DNA of 64,000 nt from positions 1-64,000 of the IMG/VR virus record IMGVR_UViG_3300026165_000001. The stretch is one strand, 5' to 3'. This DNA is from a virus (lineage: Duplodnaviria; Caudoviricetes). Of the stretch, positions 4,457 to 47,088 are shown one piece after another. The notes under the pieces were generated by a model. It was not told the origin of the DNA. It worked only from the letters and a program-made list of their open reading frames with translations, and did no database searches. Numbering within the stretch: the first letter of the stretch is position 1; each line of letters starts with the position of its first letter. A program made the position numbers and the translations under genes.

Positions 4457-4543
4457 TGTATTTCTCCTATATTAGCCTATGTTTGTTACCGGTAATCCGG
4501 CTCATGTTAGTTTCGAGACAAGCAAGTTAAAGCTAACTCCTTG

Positions 4544-12141: not shown

Positions 12142-12614
12142 TTACGAGCTCTCTTTTTTGGCATCTTGGGCTTGCGCTGACTGCGTGGCTTTTGTGGTTT
12201 GTTGAAGATTTCCTTTTCTGTAATGATGCGAAATCCAATACCCTGTTGCCTACACCACTGTCTGGCATAATTCCATTTGGCTTCATTGATAACAGCCATG
12301 GCTTGATCATATTGTCCTTTTGCGTTGCCTACCATATGACTACTGGGTTTTACTTCAACCAATTCAGCATGTTTTTTGCCTTCCTTGTCTACATAGATCA
12401 CAAAGAAGTCTGGGACATAATTGCTCTTTTTTCCAGTTATTGGATTGATATAAGGTATACGGTGGCTTTCACTAGCCCAAGCCAGGATGTTGGGATGATT
12501 GTCGCACATACGCATAAAATGAAGTTCCCAACCCGATCGGTATTTGGGAATGTGCTTTCCAACATATTTTTCTGTGTTTTTAGGCTGATAATTGCCTTGC
12601 TGATACGTCGACAT
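12138..12614 (-). CDS. gp4: Head completion nuclease (T4 gp4-like, TnsA fold)
   Basis: KYVG...YRSGWE...WASE...YVPDF...EVKP...NEAKW...FRIITE. Confidence 0.9.
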   Translation of the reverse strand: MSTYQQGNYQPKNTEKYVGKHIPKYRSGWELHFMRMCDNHPNILAWASESHRIPYINPITGKKSNYVPDFFVIYVDKEGKKHAELVEVKPSSHMVGNAKGQYDQAMAVINEAKWNYARQWCRQQGIGFRIITEKEIFNKPQKPRSQRKPKMPKKRARK

Positions 12615-41412: not shown

Positions 41413-42246
41413 ATGAGTGAAAATCCACTACAGAAACTATATAGAAACAAGAAAGTCTATGTTTCATTGCCCAGCGGTGGCAGATTTTATAACTCTGGTG
41501 TAAAACTCAGTGCAGACAATGAAATCGGCGTTATGCCCATGACTGCCACTGACGAAATCAAACTCAAAACTCCTGATGCTCTGTTCAACGGCGAAGCCCT
41601 ATACGAACTATTCAAGAGCTGTGTGCCAGATATCGAAAATCCACGTGAAATACCAGTGTGTGATATCGACAAATTATTGCTTGCAATTCGCATGGCAACC
41701 AGTGGTTCAACATTGGAGATAAAATCCACTTGCCCTAAATGCAAACACATAGAAAAATATGATGTTGACCTAGGCGTAATCATGAACAGTGCACAAGAAA
41801 TCACTGAAGACAACGCTGTAACATTGGATGACGACATCATTGTTGAAACCCGTCCACTCACACTACAAAGTCAAATCATGGCACAAATGGATTCATTTTA
41901 TCAATACCGTATGCAGCAAATGATCAATGACGATAGTGTGCCAGACGAACAAAAGGCTAAAGAGTTTAATGAAATACTAGTCCAAGCCATCACACTTCAA
42001 ACAGGACAAGTTGCCAGTTGTATTACAAAGGTGACATTGGACGAAGACACTCAAGTAACCGATAGTGAACACATTTTTGAGTGGGTAGAAAACATGGATA
42101 GTCATACTCATAGAAAAATTAAAGATTGTATTGAAAAATTGAGCGATCCAAAAATGAGTGATAGTGTTACCATCAAATGCAGTCAAGAAGAATGTGGTCA
42201 TGAATACAAAGCAAACATTGACCTAAATCCAGTAAATTTTTTCTAG
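41413..42246 (+). CDS. Baseplate hub/tail assembly chaperone (gp26-like)
   Basis: LPSGG, PMTATDEI, LLAIRMATSG...CPKC, C..EECGH; ends NPVNFF. Confidence 0.75.
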   Translation: MSENPLQKLYRNKKVYVSLPSGGRFYNSGVKLSADNEIGVMPMTATDEIKLKTPDALFNGEALYELFKSCVPDIENPREIPVCDIDKLLLAIRMATSGSTLEIKSTCPKCKHIEKYDVDLGVIMNSAQEITEDNAVTLDDDIIVETRPLTLQSQIMAQMDSFYQYRMQQMINDDSVPDEQKAKEFNEILVQAITLQTGQVASCITKVTLDEDTQVTDSEHIFEWVENMDSHTHRKIKDCIEKLSDPKMSDSVTIKCSQEECGHEYKANIDLNPVNFF

Positions 42247-42260
42247 CCACCGCCATACAC

Positions 42261-42476
42261 ATGACTCCTGGTGAATTAAGACAATACATTCACGATATGG
42301 AGGTGGAGGTAGAACGACTGGAGGAATACGTATTTGATATAGCACTCTTTAGTGAGGGTGCGATATCTGTTAGTGAACTCCTAGGTATGCCCATGCCCAA
42401 AATACGAAAATTCGAAGAACGCCTAAGCGAAAAAGTCAAAGCAGAAGCTGGCAAGAAGGGAACCGAGTATCTCTAA
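42261..42476 (+). CDS. Small hub-assembly protein (gp51-like); probable -1 frameshift extension of the upstream ORF
   Basis: SVSELLGMPM motif. No SD; in the -1 frame relative to 41413..42246. Confidence 0.6.
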   Translation: MTPGELRQYIHDMEVEVERLEEYVFDIALFSEGAISVSELLGMPMPKIRKFEERLSEKVKAEAGKKGTEYL

Positions 42477-42485
42477 TCAACTCAG

Positions 42486-42607
42486 ACGGTTGTCAACCGT
42501 ATATTTCCATCCACTCCACTCTATTATAGTGATGCTTCGCATCACTAGCTGATTCGCATATCTCATCTCCATTCGCTTCGCTCATTTCGATTCGATCTGC
42601 TTTCAGC
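42486..42607. repeat. Cluster of hairpins including GCGAAGC mini-hairpins (minus strand)
   Basis: ACGGTTG-T-CAACCGT 42486-42500; TAGTGATGC-TTC-GCATCACTA 42527-42547; GCTTCGC 42575-42581. Confidence 0.7.
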
Positions 42608-42691
42608 ATTTCTTATCGTGTTTTACTATGTCGAATTGTCATTCCATTTTGATTTGAATGTTTTGAATCTATTAGGCATTTCCCAGAACCA

Positions 42692-43050
42692 ATAGCCACA
42701 CTTTGCCCGATGAGGCAAAGTGTGGCTATGGCAGACGTTTCCCGTCACCAACCCAGCAAGCTGGGCCACTCCGTTCCAAAACAACCTTGTATAGCCAGGG
42801 AAGGGCGGTTGAGCGATACCCTTTTATGTTTAGCTTTTCAACGCGGGACCACATCATGCTGTTAACGGCTTACACGATGCTGCCTGTGGGTTCCAAGCGT
42901 GTGAGGAGAGCCCACTCATTTCTCAGGTGTCAATCTGAGTGCGTATATGACTGCGACATGCCAGATCTGTTGCCGAAAATTTGTTTACGGCTCCTCAAGG
43001 CATTCATTGAGGTCGCTATGGTCAGGGTTCTGAGGTTGGTCCTAATAAGC
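42692..43050 (-). ncRNA. Candidate large structured RNA (~360 nt)
   Basis: At least 8 stems, including a perfect 16-bp hairpin at 42692-42729 and a possible pseudoknot; intergenic; GC-richer than its flanks. Confidence 0.55.
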
Positions 43051-43055
43051 CTATA

Positions 43056-43565
43056 TTAGTTGTGAGCACTTTCAAAGGCAGCTCTATTGAGTTCAAAGAA
43101 ACTATCAAATTCTGTTAGTTTCCAAACAACTCCTTCCTGGTCCGTGTAGACAACGTGTCTGTTGGTTTTGAATGGCAACGTAGCATCAAATCCAACAAAC
43201 TTACCTACACGGGTAATTTTCATAAAAAGAATATTAATGTCATCATCGTCCGCAGCATCTTTGATTTGCTGCAACCAATCTTCGAGAATAGGGATCGGCT
43301 CGTTGAATAGTAATCTATGGAACGGAAAACTTGCGTAGTTTTTACATTCACAGTTAAATCGATTCCAATGATCAGGCGGAACAATGTCGCCCTTCATGTG
43401 ACGTATCTGCCCATCACTCATGAGAATTTTACGGTCGGCATTGCTGCCACCTGTATAAGCCCCACTGTTGGGGACGCGCATGAATGGCGCGCCATAAGTC
43501 TCTGTCAAGTATTTGGCGACATCACGTTCCCACGCGCCGCCCTTGGCTTTGCTTTTACTGGTCAA
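43056..43565 (-). CDS. Holliday-junction resolvase-like PD-(D/E)xK nuclease
   Basis: SKAKGGAWERDVA...RVPNSGA...GDI...ECKNY. Confidence 0.75.
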   Translation of the reverse strand: MTSKSKAKGGAWERDVAKYLTETYGAPFMRVPNSGAYTGGSNADRKILMSDGQIRHMKGDIVPPDHWNRFNCECKNYASFPFHRLLFNEPIPILEDWLQQIKDAADDDDINILFMKITRVGKFVGFDATLPFKTNRHVVYTDQEGVVWKLTEFDSFFELNRAAFESAHN

Positions 43566-43780: not shown

Positions 43781-44018
43781 TTATCATCTCCGCAAGAACA
43801 GGACCACATTTGTATGATTCTGTTATCTTTTTCTGTGTTTTTTTATTCTCTGTAGCTTTTCTTGTCGTTTGTTGGGCCTCGACTATTTTGTATAGTTCAT
43901 CGATATGATTGAAGTCTGCGTTTGCATTAACATAATCATAATCATACCAATGACTTTTAATACTGTCAAGTTGTGAACCGTAATATGTTTTGCTAGGGAT
44001 ATTTTTACTCAATGTCAA
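43770..44018 (-). CDS. Hypothetical protein
   Basis: Coupled ORF; ends LAEMINEL, similar to its neighbour. Confidence 0.55.
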   Translation of the reverse strand: MTLSKNIPSKTYYGSQLDSIKSHWYDYDYVNANADFNHIDELYKIVEAQQTTRKATENKKTQKKITESYKCGPVLAEMINEL

Positions 44019-45777
44019 ACTCCTGATCTGGGCTAAAGCTAGTAAAGCCGTTTTCTTTAACCACGTAGAGTATGTTATTTACTCTTCCAATTAATTCTTC
44101 CCTGTGTGAAATAAGGAATATATTTTTGTTTCTATCGCGGTGCATTTTTTTCAGAACAACAAGTGCACTTTCTACACCATTGCTATCCATGCCACTATCA
44201 ATTAATTCGTCTATTGCCATGAAGTCAATAGGCGTATTGGTGCTTTCGTGAACATCACGGAATGCCCAACTAAGGCCAAGAATCAATCTATTTCTTTCGC
44301 CTCGACTCAAGTTATCAAAATCTAGTTCACGTCCTAATTCTGTAATTTCAACACTGAGATCATTTTGAAATTGAACCTCGTGTGGCAAACCCAACTTGTT
44401 AAGATAATAGTTGAGTCGGCTATTTAAATATTGTAGATTTTGATCAATAATGCGCTTGCGGACAAAACTGTCTTTGTTTGTGAGCAACTTGAGTAAGAAC
44501 TCCTGATGTTCACGCAAGTTATGCAAGCTATTCATTGTCTCCCATTCGATTGTTTGGATGCCAGATTCTTCAAGACTAGCAACTTGTTCAGTATAGGGGT
44601 CTTCTGCCTGTTGCAACCCTTCTAGCTTACTGGTCAAAGTTGCTAGTTGACTTTGTTGTTCATACGCCTCTTGCGCCGTTGCATATTTAGTTGTGGGTAT
44701 CTTGTCTGGCAGCTTGATGGCTTTGATCTTGTGAGTTATTTCTTCGACATTGCCGTTTGCTTCTGCTATGGCTGCTTGATGTCCCTCTATGGCTCTGGTT
44801 TTATTTTTAATGATTTTGTCATTTGAATCATCATGGAGTTCCTGACCACATGCATAGCAAGTATGGTTTTTAGCTGCTTCCAGGTCCTTCTCAGCTTTTT
44901 CCAAGCTACGTTTTTCGCGTTGAATTGTAGCTTCTTCTCCTGATAGAGAGCGTTGTAGTTCTGACAGCTCAGAATTTTTACGACGGTATTCGTCAAGCGC
45001 CACATGCTGTTCAAGTTCGAATTCAATGTCCATGGACTCGAGTTCAGATACAGCTTCTTGAAGCTCTTTGATTTCTTCTGCGTTCTTATTTTTCCATACA
45101 CGTTGCCTACGTTTGAGGTCTTCAATCGAACGTTTAATTTGCTCATTAGCATTCTCCACGCCTTTGACCCGATATTCTTCTTCTTTGATTTGATCCTTGG
45201 TGGTTTTTACCAATTCTTTAAGCACATTTGCTTTTTCACTGAGCAACGTGATTCCCATGAGATTTTCAATAATCTCACGTTGATCATTCGCTCGTAATGC
45301 AAGGAAAGGTTCGTTATATGTGTTTAGAGCAATGAGATGTTTGAACATGATATGATTCATTCCAATCACATTTTCAATCTCATGCTGAGTCAAACGCATT
45401 TCACCCTGTCCTTCGTCAGTTTCCACAACCGCGTCGTGTTCATTGACCAAAAATTTAAGAGTGTTTGGGGCGCGACCCCTTTCAATACGATAGGAATTGT
45501 TACCCACTTCGAATTCAACTGTTACCAACATTCCTTTGTTATTGGTCTTATTGATAAGGTTGTTTTTTCGAATATTAGTAATGGCATTTCCATAAAGAGC
45601 ATAGCTAAGGGCGTTGATCATAGTGGTCTTGCCCACGCCGTTTCGTGAACCATCACCACCAAGATCCAAGTTATTACCCAACACAAGTGTTAGTCCAGCT
45701 TCTTGGAAATTGACGGCCTGGGTAACGTTACCCACGCTCATAAAATTCTTGATTGTGATATTCTTAAACCGAATCAT
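44005..45777 (-). CDS. gp46: Rad50/SbcC-like recombination ATPase (gp46)
   Basis: NGVGKTT Walker A, CYAC zinc hook, LSRGE signature, AIDELID, ISH. Confidence 0.95.
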   Translation of the reverse strand: MIRFKNITIKNFMSVGNVTQAVNFQEAGLTLVLGNNLDLGGDGSRNGVGKTTMINALSYALYGNAITNIRKNNLINKTNNKGMLVTVEFEVGNNSYRIERGRAPNTLKFLVNEHDAVVETDEGQGEMRLTQHEIENVIGMNHIMFKHLIALNTYNEPFLALRANDQREIIENLMGITLLSEKANVLKELVKTTKDQIKEEEYRVKGVENANEQIKRSIEDLKRRQRVWKNKNAEEIKELQEAVSELESMDIEFELEQHVALDEYRRKNSELSELQRSLSGEEATIQREKRSLEKAEKDLEAAKNHTCYACGQELHDDSNDKIIKNKTRAIEGHQAAIAEANGNVEEITHKIKAIKLPDKIPTTKYATAQEAYEQQSQLATLTSKLEGLQQAEDPYTEQVASLEESGIQTIEWETMNSLHNLREHQEFLLKLLTNKDSFVRKRIIDQNLQYLNSRLNYYLNKLGLPHEVQFQNDLSVEITELGRELDFDNLSRGERNRLILGLSWAFRDVHESTNTPIDFMAIDELIDSGMDSNGVESALVVLKKMHRDRNKNIFLISHREELIGRVNNILYVVKENGFTSFSPDQEFDIE

Positions 45778-46068: not shown

Positions 46069-47088
46069 TTATAGATTGTTGTATATATCCATTAGTAATT
46101 TTTTGTTGATCATTTCGCTATCAACATTCTGAAGCTGATTATAAACGATTTGATCTACACTTTCCACAACGAAATCACCGTCCTGTGCAGGATCCATTGA
46201 CATTTCGTCTTTCTTGACAGGCAGCAGACTGAGTTCACGTGGATTGAACTGAGTCATAAATGTTTCCTTAATGAAGTTTGCTTCTTCATAACTGATAGGA
46301 ACGTCTAGCATCGCCCGACAATAGGTTTTTTCGTTTAGGTAGTCCTCTGGCGCGTCAATCAGGTCGCTAAGATTGAGGCGGATATAGCGTGGGCCATCAT
46401 AATTGACATAAGTTGGTTCACCTCCCCACTTTAAAAACATAGCACCACGTTGGTCATCCCAGGCATCAGCATAATTGTGAGCAAAAGGACTACCTAAATA
46501 ATGGACTTTGTCCCGCACTTGGCGCTTGTGAAAGTGCCCGCTAAAGACATAGTCAGCTTTCTTGAAATCATCTGCTTTGAGTTCGCCGTGGTCAGGCATC
46601 TCAACAATGGCATTCATCATGAAATGTGGCAACTCAAAATGGCCAAAGACATACTTACTCTTCAGCTTTTTCATCTTTTTCCATTCATCTCCAACTAGCC
46701 AAGGAACCAAGGCGACATCGCCCTGCTCTAAAACATCGTCGTTGATAATGTGAATATTGTCAAACATGTCTCCATATGGGATGGAGTTAATCTCTCGCTT
46801 TTCACGATAGAATAGATCATGGTTCCCAACTAACATGTAGATGTTTTCAAATGCTTTACTCAGCCTGGAAAAGTTGCTTACTGTGTAGTTGAGAGTTGAT
46901 ACGTTAACACTAGCACGATGGTGATGCCAATCGCCTAGGAATATGCAGGTTTCACAGCCACGAGTTTTTGCTTCGTCGATAAACCATTTGATAAACTCTT
47001 CACAGTCGATATTGTGTTGGCGACTGTTATTTTTGTTACCAAAATGAATGTCGGTGAAACACGCGGCGTGTTCAAATAAGTTGTTCAA
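46069..47088 (-). CDS. gp47: Mre11/SbcD-like nuclease (gp47)
   Basis: DIHFG, LGDWHH, GNHD, GHFE, SGHFH metallophosphoesterase motifs. Confidence 0.95.
   Translation of the reverse strand: MNNLFEHAACFTDIHFGNKNNSRQHNIDCEEFIKWFIDEAKTRGCETCIFLGDWHHHRASVNVSTLNYTVSNFSRLSKAFENIYMLVGNHDLFYREKREINSIPYGDMFDNIHIINDDVLEQGDVALVPWLVGDEWKKMKKLKSKYVFGHFELPHFMMNAIVEMPDHGELKADDFKKADYVFSGHFHKRQVRDKVHYLGSPFAHNYADAWDDQRGAMFLKWGGEPTYVNYDGPRYIRLNLSDLIDAPEDYLNEKTYCRAMLDVPISYEEANFIKETFMTQFNPRELSLLPVKKDEMSMDPAQDGDFVVESVDQIVYNQLQNVDSEMINKKLLMDIYNNL

Follow-up and report, generated by a model that had tools for sequence, protein, structure and literature searches.

A candidate family of large, doubly pseudoknotted RNAs in uncultured T4-like jumbo phages

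Few large, highly structured RNAs of bacteria and phages are known (RNase P, tmRNA, introns, OLE, GOLLD, ROOL, HEARO, and raiA), and each of these brought new biology or a new RNA architecture. In ColE1, the RNA II promoter and the origin are about as far apart as the unit described here is long (~560 nt), and RNA II and the T4 origin primers form simple stem-loops with little conserved tertiary pairing. The present locus shares with ColE1 RNA II and T4 oriF and oriG a host-polymerase promoter upstream of an AT-rich tract but differs from them in that the RNA is dominated by two covarying pseudoknots and invariant loops. The T4 homing endonuclease gene segB sits in the tRNA and stable-RNA cluster of that phage, and here too a phage RNA gene is flanked by a free-standing gene of the Seg-type GIY-YIG kind; the present RNA is not a tRNA, however, and two unrelated nuclease families alternate in the slot. 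GOLLD and ROOL come closest in kind. GOLLD is reported to combine a part conserved in all members with a 5' part that is less conserved, ROOL to include a disordered linker, and both to make contacts between RNA copies (PMC12286853). The present RNA is likewise a large, multi-domain, pseudoknotted non-coding RNA of phages without a known protein partner; its core is conserved, and its 5' domain and AT-rich linker vary. It differs from GOLLD and ROOL in matching their Rfam models neither in sequence nor in structure, in its smaller size (folded body ~350 nt), in lying away from tRNA genes (0 tRNAs in 60 loci), and in being carried by environmental T4-like jumbo phages. In our reading, it may represent a new class comparable in kind to those two RNAs. 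Fremin, Bhatt, and Kyrpides (2023) reported 8495 candidate structured RNAs of DNA viruses from IMG/VR; these range from 29 to 151 nt with a mean of 67, and no large multi-domain RNA is described in the main text (PMC10690425). Their data source and type of evidence, covariation, are the same as ours. Pieces of the present RNA could be among the 8495 candidates. A search of full-text, mostly open-access literature found no description of the RNA.

The window analyzed here comprises the first 64 kb (64,000 nt) of an 87 kb IMG/VR viral contig (IMGVR_UViG_3300026165_000001) that is rated 24% complete. Its gp46-like protein shares 49.7% identity with the version in the Pseudomonas phage PA5oct group, 47.9% with that in Sinorhizobium phage Phosso, and 44% with that in Agrobacterium phage Atu_ph07, which identifies the virus as an uncultured jumbo T4-like myovirus. 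A gap of 579 nt (42477-43055) separates two convergent genes, extending from the end of a plus-strand 71-aa ORF at 42476 to the end of the minus-strand nuclease gene at 43056, which agrees with the ~580 nt of intergenic space described in the original prediction. On the minus strand, the RNA is placed downstream of the gp47-like, gp46-like, and PDDEXK-nuclease genes (Table 1). The G+C content is 0.50-0.535 over 42700-42999 compared to about 0.34-0.46 in the intervals on either side. An SRA search located the locus in 13 DNA runs labelled as soil metagenome, and the RNA runs listed numbered zero.

Table 1. Features of the RNA locus and its neighbors in the window, listed by descending position.
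Feature	Position	Strand	Evidence or remark
Metallophos gene, gp47/Mre11-like	46069-47088	minus	Pfam domain
AAA_23 gene, gp46/Rad50-like	44005-45777	minus	Pfam domain
Two small ORFs	between the AAA_23 and PDDEXK_15 genes	minus	
PDDEXK_15 nuclease ('resolvase'), neighbor outside the RNA	43056-43565	minus	E 2.5e-24; phrog_244
CTAATATAGGC motif, overlapping the nuclease stop codon	43047-43059	minus	the window's single CTAAYAYA unit
Folded body: 5' domain, pseudoknotted core, long hairpin	42690-43016	minus	~70% identity across relatives; covariation
P1, 5' strand GCGAC, closing the 5' domain	43012-43016, pairs with 42953-42957	minus	covariation
P2, enclosing UUGAGG, hairpin 42988-91/42972-75, and GAUCUGG	42999-43003 with 42958-42962	minus	
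UGAC-loop hairpin, just 5' of the core	42922-42939	minus	87.5% paired, 5/5 double changes
Core, 155 nt	42768-42922	minus	R1 match end to end
Hairpin Ha/Hb	42886-42915 (42911-15/42886-90 and 42905-07/42892-94)	minus	helices 100% and 99.5% paired
Hairpin S1	42851-42880 (42880-73/42858-51)	minus	covariation, outside R1
S2, pseudoknot 1	S1 loop 42860-42867 with 42772-42778	minus	99.7% paired, 5/5 double changes
Pseudoknot 2	GUUGA 42838-42842 with UCAAC 42808-42812 in the Hc loop	minus	91.0% paired
Helix Hf, enclosing Hc and Hd	42828-42831 with 42779-42782	minus	
Hairpin Hc	42801-42823	minus	most conserved sequence of the family, GGUAYMGCNYAACCGCC
Hairpin Hd	42784-42800	minus	90.4% paired, 3/4 double changes
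3' strands of S2 (42772-78) and Hf (42779-82)	42772-42782	minus	
Optional hairpin	42752-42765	minus	window's subgroup only; ~12/43 sequences with letters there
Segment X, GUGACGGGAAA	42736-42746	minus	varies in parallel with X'
Long hairpin, conserved stem CACACUUNGCC...GGCNAAGUGUG	42692-42729	minus	covariation
Segment X', UCUGGGAAA	42676-42686 (approximate)	minus	varies in parallel with X
AT-rich variable linker (~100 nt), then conserved small hairpins	42477-42675	minus	GNA/GNRA-looped hairpin 42529-42545
T4_baseplate (gp26-like) gene and 71-aa ORF	ending 42476	plus	convergent with the RNA

Protein-anchored scans of IMG/VR yielded 84 loci, 39 of which contain the intergenic sequence according to blastn and nhmmer, without exception in the identical position and orientation. 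A pattern derived from the best-conserved hairpin (Hc) matched at least 118 further stretches, 115 of 118 being true members according to nhmmer, so that the homologues total at least 154 IMG/VR loci. The 143 full-length copies and the window were grouped into 64 clusters at 93% identity. A covariance model of the 155-nt core (R1; 153 positions, 27 pairs) matched the window at 127.5 bits (E 1e-30), where it detected one copy in the 87-kb contig, and matched all 64 representatives end to end with E-values from 1e-37 to 2e-4. No match to the region was obtained by blastn against 50,697 phage records. R1 likewise gave none in SCTP-2, Phosso, and PA5oct, three cultured relatives searched genome-wide and, with filters off, near their nuclease genes. 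Many uncultured jumbo T4-like phages related to the PA5oct and Atu_ph07 groups share the RNA as a conserved unit.

When folded in comparison to shuffled sequences, the minus strand gave a z score of -3.98 versus -2.42 for the plus strand, and RNAalifold applied to 23 sequences returned 39 pairs, 29 with compensatory changes. The structure was counted on the R1 alignment as 40 pairs in 10 helices, including two pseudoknots, for 64 sequences (63 distinct); three of the counted helices (S1, Hf, and the loop-loop pseudoknot) lie outside R1 and are hence unfitted. Standard pairs occupied 93.3% of the cells compared to 72.9% in shuffled controls, none of the 500 shuffles reaching 93.3%, and sliding the partners by 1-3 columns reduced the pairing to 33-44% and the covariation score from 0.604 to 0.06-0.11. 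Both-sided (double) changes were present in 33 of the 40 pairs, supporting the earlier claim of a large ncRNA. The pairing strand is the minus strand because G-U pairs are conserved and frequent, for example in 43 sequences at one S1 pair (GU), in 60 in Hc (UG), and as CG:21/UG:19 in the long hairpin. Because subfamilies were misaligned, a 23-sequence MAFFT alignment gave blurred counts for the 5' domain, which were redone on the 11 sequences of the window's subgroup. G/U-rich pseudo-helices (GUUG, GUGUG) returned by the helix finder were discarded as wobble artefacts. Nine of the eleven structural elements in the original prediction were supported; the exceptions were 42993-98/43007-12 and 42734-46, the latter paired in 47.5% when scored by column.

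Within the core, the outer helix of Ha/Hb was paired in 100% of the 63 distinct sequences and showed double changes at 5 of 5 pairs, and the stem of Hc (42801-05/42819-23) was paired in 99.4% with the same number of double changes. The outer four pairs of S1 were 87.9% paired, with 4/4 double changes, and the earlier argument that this stem needs G-U pairs and so must lie on the minus strand holds. The proposed pseudoknot between the Hc loop and 42838-44 was also recovered; the pair 42839/42811 is GC in 40 sequences, AU in 21, and GU in 2 with none unpaired, and the helix covaries as GUUAU/AUAAC and GUUAC/GUAAC. Pseudoknot 1 lengthens to as many as 10 bp in some relatives, L006 among them, and the internal loop of Ha/Hb, GCUCU...GAAC, is near-invariant. 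The Ha/Hb hairpin alone recurs in the more distant relatives L066 and L074.

The 5' domain is closed by P1, which was paired in 98.2% among 11 close relatives with double changes at two of its five pairs (AU:5 GC:5 at one pair). The same stem had also been proposed to close a helix at 42993-98/43007-12; this part of the proposal failed, as that helix was only 63.6% paired with 0/5 double changes. P2 competes with it and uses part of the same stretch, and was 79.2% paired with 3/5 double changes in the 11 sequences and 82.6% paired with 5/5 double changes in the 23 sequences. Inside P2, UUGAGG is conserved and the hairpin 42991-88/42975-72 is variable; the latter had been predicted and was 72.7-95.5% paired with double changes in 4/4 pairs. 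The predicted stem 42922-26/42935-39 of the UGAC-loop hairpin was likewise upheld (Table 1). The 5' domain differs among subfamilies and the core is constant, and in one subfamily merely ~60 nt extend from the upstream stop codon to the core. Large functional RNAs with peripheral elements show this combination of a variable 5' domain and a constant core. A helix joining the 5' and 3' ends of the whole RNA was sought by eye and by scanning, and none was established.

On the 3' side of the core, the optional hairpin that had been noted at 42752-65 was 73.8% paired with 7/7 double changes and is restricted to the window's subgroup. For the element at 42734-46, a GAC...GUC stem is visible by eye in many relatives. 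The perfect 16-bp hairpin of the original prediction was confirmed as 86.2% paired with 11/16 double changes, many of them from C-G to U-G, which is sensible on the minus strand only; no intrinsic terminator was called at this position, and no U tract follows the stem in the window or in 43 relatives. X and X' flank this long hairpin, and across 43 relatives they vary in a parallel, not complementary, manner, for example as GGGAAA/GGGAAA, GGUAAA/GGUAAA, GGAAAA/GGAAAA, UGUCAAG/UGUCAAG, and GGUGAAG/GGUGAAG. Most versions contain a GNRA-like tetraloop sequence, and no cis partner complementary to X was found at a constant place among the relatives. The presence of two identical loops suggests that X and X' may form two contacts of the same kind, either with a symmetric partner or from one RNA copy to another. 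As a possible sign of homo-oligomeric, RNA-only assembly, their parallel variation is only a hint. The small hairpins beyond the AT-rich linker reach down to about 42480. One of them was 77-83% paired with double changes in 23 sequences, and the other gave 53.8% by column, a value lowered by differing loop lengths. The stretch 42477-42675 travels with the RNA and is found in a bacterial copy as well.

Upstream sequences from 59 representatives revealed that in many relatives 2-7 phased tandem copies of the CTAAYAYA unit (period ~11) immediately precede the RNA on its 5' side. In the window, CTAATATAGGC is the only exact match, and the motif is not enriched (9 found versus 5.0 expected). CTAAYANAGGC and CAGAACCCT were ruled out as general promoters, neither being enriched in the window. 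Consensus sigma-70 promoters (TTGACA-17-TATAAT) are located directly upstream of the RNA in relatives such as L126, L095, L158, L032, and L131, and occur where a GIY-YIG gene or a spacer precedes the RNA. In the window, the nuclease stop codon and the RNA lie too close together for a promoter to fit between them, and a weak promoter-like site is present only inside the nuclease gene. The plus strand from 42200 to 43300 was scanned for a promoter of an RNA I-type antisense transcript and contained no promoter-like site, a kind of scan that is weak evidence either way.

Across the 154 listed loci, the gene order is gp46, then a gene for PDDEXK_15 (63 loci) or a SegE-like GIY-YIG protein (59 loci), and then the RNA. 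A nuclease gene is thus immediately 5' of the RNA in 122 of these listed loci, the two types sharing one slot and occurring together at one locus only. On the 3' side, a same-strand gene for a 147-aa protein is found in 77 of the 154 listed loci and the convergent gp26 cluster follows directly in 43. The 147-aa protein had no Pfam or PADLOC family, matched only 'T4-like GC 824' clusters in the Atlas, and is not similar to the product of the gene downstream of the RNA copy in Candidatus Njordibacter (see below). Each of three records that are complete or nearly so (G223, G224, and G226) has a single RNA copy; in G223 the RNA is at about 26 kb and the PDDEXK gene near 200 kb, a separation of ~170 kb. 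A fourth record, G225 (318 kb), contains four diverged RNA copies with unrelated neighbors. No nuclease neighbor was identified by Pfam for three of the four G225 copies or for the G223 copy.

A pattern scan of 185,579 prokaryote species genomes gave 53 matches, of which 51 were due to chance and two were real as judged by R1. The complete chromosome of Candidatus Njordibacter sp. Uisw_056 encodes the RNA at 135.6 bits, and an Azospirillum MAG contig with 60% G+C encodes it at 44.6 bits. The Njordibacter island contains the whole unit, including the long hairpin and the 3' hairpins, between a divergent serine-recombinase gene and uncharacterised genes, with TRAP-transporter genes on one side and inverse autotransporter and tyrosine-integrase genes on the other. 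The Azospirillum copy is found among sensor-kinase, response-regulator, EndoU, and transposase genes. Neither copy is accompanied by any T4-like gene, and their large neighboring proteins are unrelated, with none shared and none matching PADLOC. The RNA was absent from the other genomes examined in the families of these two carriers (0/120 and 0/100, stricter filters). No constant protein neighbor was found across the phage, paralogue, and bacterial copies, and the link to recombination genes is positional and inconstant. This lack, together with the consensus promoters in some relatives, the four diverged copies of G225, and the bacterial copies, marks the RNA as an independent gene.

Comparison to Rfam 15, as suggested with the original prediction, gave no match at the gathering thresholds for the 64-kb window or 16 homologous loci. 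In the E-value mode, only chance-level matches were obtained (window, the two further homologues L035 and L065, and the two bacterial loci), the permissive noise including miRNA models placed on the long hairpin. The Rfam 15 thresholds for GOLLD, ROOL, OLE, HEARO, RNase P, tmRNA, group I/II introns, 6S, and the riboswitch families were not reached. ARAGORN detected 0 tRNA or tmRNA genes in the window and 0 in 60 homologous loci, in keeping with the earlier statement that tRNA and tmRNA hallmarks are lacking. A T-box leader was considered and rejected; one homologue scored 12 bits versus a gathering score of 93 (E 3.4), the window scored none, and the window has neither a terminator nor a downstream gene related to aminoacyl-tRNA. 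The RNA exceeds 300 nt, contains many covarying helices and pseudoknots, is phage-borne, and is non-coding, as is characteristic of large ornate phage RNAs. The covariation, the lack of a conserved ORF, and the lack of an Rfam 15 match support the description of this element as an undescribed large phage ncRNA.

The original prediction had set a conserved, 118-aa plus-strand protein (42703-43059) against the RNA, and the corresponding ORF is open in the window. It matched no Pfam family, however, and only 5 of the 64 representatives keep 100 aa or more open across the homologous segment (median 67 aa); stops are present in all six frames over this segment in most representatives, the conserved nucleotide blocks sit in differing frames among relatives, and the substitutions follow the pattern of paired helices. 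The coding interpretation is already refuted by these comparisons and has practically no chance of being correct. The RNA might otherwise act in cis, as a very large leader or riboswitch for the downstream gene or as a structured 3' UTR that stabilizes the nuclease operon mRNA. Consistent with such a role, two small hairpins are located just before the start of the same-strand 147-aa gene where that gene is present, and in the window the RNA begins at the nuclease stop codon. Yet the window's 87-kb contig lacks the 147-aa gene; the window and at least 43 other loci have a convergent gp26-like gene next to the RNA; the genes downstream of the paralogues and bacterial copies are unrelated; and neither a terminator/anti-terminator pair nor a U tract behind the long hairpin is present. 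The convergent next gene speaks against cis action in the window, and as an RNA gene of its own that retains its fold across very dissimilar surroundings the element is therefore unlikely to have a cis-regulatory or operon-specific role there; a role in cis we regard as very improbable overall, although it may apply at the 77 listed loci with the same-strand 147-aa gene.

Replication offers another explanation, in which a host-polymerase transcript would fold and a persistent RNA-DNA hybrid in the AT tract would prime DNA synthesis, as for ColE1 or T4 oriF/oriG. The consensus sigma-70 promoters upstream in relatives would suit such an origin module, as would the variable AT-rich ~100 nt and small hairpins that follow the folded body, the iteron-like phased CTAAYAYA repeats of many relatives, the movement of the ~560 nt unit as a whole, its occurrence beside recombinases in bacterial mobile DNA, and the several copies in one genome, T4 itself having several replication origins. 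Against this interpretation, the doubly pseudoknotted core, near-invariant loops, and conserved G-U pairs exceed the known needs of a primer RNA, the window has a single repeat unit of a motif that is not enriched, and SCTP-2, Phosso, and PA5oct lack the RNA throughout their genomes yet replicate. The suggested coupling to recombination genes is countered by the distance between the RNA and the nuclease gene in complete relatives and by the unrelated neighbors in G225 and in bacteria, and we consider the origin module improbable. The neighboring enzymes raise the further alternative that the RNA is a guide or cofactor of the adjoining nuclease or recombinase, or a mobile ribozyme-like element that spreads with those enzymes. 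The single slot occupied by PDDEXK_15 or GIY-YIG genes, the serine recombinase gene as the divergent neighbor in Njordibacter, and the patchy distribution with multiple and bacterial copies are in favor of this idea, whereas one RNA cofactor for three unrelated enzyme families is unlikely, the G223 copy and three G225 copies have no nuclease neighbor by Pfam, PDDEXK_15 genes occur in cultured phages without the RNA, and the locus has no exon context, reverse transcriptase, or Rfam match to an intron or omega-RNA. A selfish or nuclease-linked RNA thus seems unlikely. Most simply, the adjoining PDDEXK_15 and SegE-like GIY-YIG genes would be homing-type nucleases beside a conserved RNA gene, not its partners; the near-constant adjacency to three unrelated DNA-cutting families (PDDEXK, GIY-YIG, and the Njordibacter serine recombinase) could nevertheless reflect a functional link.

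We favor, as the probable interpretation, a large, stable, trans-acting structured RNA gene of an uncatalogued family that is made early by the host polymerase and serves as a scaffold or decoy, in assembly, or as a ribozyme. The two pseudoknots, conserved G-U pairs, and invariant loops indicate that a precise three-dimensional shape is required, and a trans-acting folded RNA is preferred because this complexity points to such a shape. The folded body measures ~330-370 nt, and the whole unit of ~560 nt moves together. The function we assign to it is a class-level guess. Host RNA polymerase would transcribe the RNA early in infection, presumably by read-through from the gp47-gp46-nuclease operon in the window and from its own consensus sigma-70 promoter in those relatives that have room for one. 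The product would then work as a folded molecule that binds as a scaffold or decoy, assembles into a particle, or acts as a ribozyme; its target may be common to diverse bacteria, and its role would be other than that of a leader, terminator, or primer. A more specific proposal, which we offer tentatively as a possibility, is that of a new large-RNA class with its own activity (ribozyme or self-assembling particle) that jumbo phages would use early in infection, sometimes in four diverged copies, and that bacterial mobile islands would occasionally have captured, with the X/X' loops acting as contacts to a symmetric partner or to the RNA's own copies.

The RNA is abundant in environmental phage contigs, with at least 115 true members from the pattern scan, and it is directly testable, as the sequence can be transcribed in vitro. 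A model of it gives annotators content for a recurrent 0.6-kb 'gap' in the genomes of jumbo phages. The clean covariation permits modelling, and two pseudoknots together with invariant loops are typical of binding or catalytic RNAs. The family combines this architecture with three unusual genetic behaviors, namely the presence of several paralogues in a single phage, transfer to bacterial islands, and an alternation of the nuclease genes alongside.

One phage genome, the 317,722-bp IMG/VR record G225, contains four versions of the core that have diverged from one another; these score 90.8, 71.5, 64.9, and 47.5 bits with R1, the covariance model of the 155-nt core, and have unrelated neighbors, including an LPD29 protein and a dCMP-deaminase-like protein. 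Copies were also located in bacterial sequences. The Njordibacter copy lies within a genomic island and adjoins a serine recombinase gene, and that of Azospirillum is a 60% G+C version of the RNA near a DDE transposase. The RNA was not found in the other genomes searched (0 of 120 from the family of Njordibacter and 0 of 100 from that of Azospirillum).

Positions of RNA copies and associated sequence features
Feature	Record or locus	Position	Remark
RNA-core copies	G225	12288-12454; 120354-120520; 251842-252033; 315043-315210	
RNA copy L264	NZ_CP159830.1	2863589-2863742	Complete Njordibacter chromosome
RNA copy L265	NZ_DASPMG010000099.1		Azospirillum MAG
Segment X	Window	~42736-42746	Flanks long hairpin
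Segment X'	Window	~42676-42686	Flanks long hairpin
CTAAYAYA repeats	Window	43049-43059 (single unit)	
CTAAYAYA repeats	L035, L038, L065, L052, L032, L156, and others		
Gap with Ha/Hb hairpin	L066	4676-4734	
Gap with Ha/Hb hairpin	L069		
Gap with Ha/Hb hairpin	L074	4040-4116	

The short segments X and X' vary in parallel among relatives, having identical letters and no complementarity; a cis partner for them was sought and none was found. Just 5' of the RNA, many relatives carry 2 to 7 tandem copies of CTAAYAYA with a period of ∼11 nt, the last of which is joined to AGGC, the 5' strand of P1 (the helix closing the 5' domain) in one subfamily. Two neighboring near-copies of this motif, CTAATATAGGA and CAAACATAGGC, occur away from the RNA locus at 4465-4485 (minus strand) of the window. 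In locus L125, the region separating the GIY-YIG gene from the RNA holds three tandem copies of the 23-nt unit ACAGACACCAAGTCAATTCAAGC, situated ∼150-250 nt 5' of the core; L126, L187, and L139 have a related block, CAGACATAAAGTC.

On the other side, the sequence past the 3' hairpins continues in relatives to the point where a 147-aa gene ("T4-like GC 824") begins. Window positions 42477-42530 align with the stretch leading into this gene, but the gene itself is missing there and was not found in the whole 87-kb contig. This locus appears to have lost it.

In phages that are less closely related (L066, L069, and L074), the PDDEXK gene is followed by a gap of 0.5-0.7 kb, and the sole feature shared with the RNA is the first hairpin of the core, Ha/Hb (GGGCUCUC...GAACCC); on this resemblance, the gap element may represent a remote sister family. 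Other relatives (loci L018, L081, and L024-L031) lack an R1 match and likewise contain 0.6-0.9-kb noncoding gaps downstream of the PDDEXK gene.

Across the window and loci L003-L207, two small, mutually unrelated nuclease genes, PDDEXK_15 (63 loci) and a SegE-like GIY-YIG (59 loci), alternate at a single site that separates gp46 from the RNA, with both present together only in L128. This alternation suggests that the window's "resolvase", the PDDEXK_15 nuclease encoded at 43056-43565, may itself behave as a free-standing homing nuclease.
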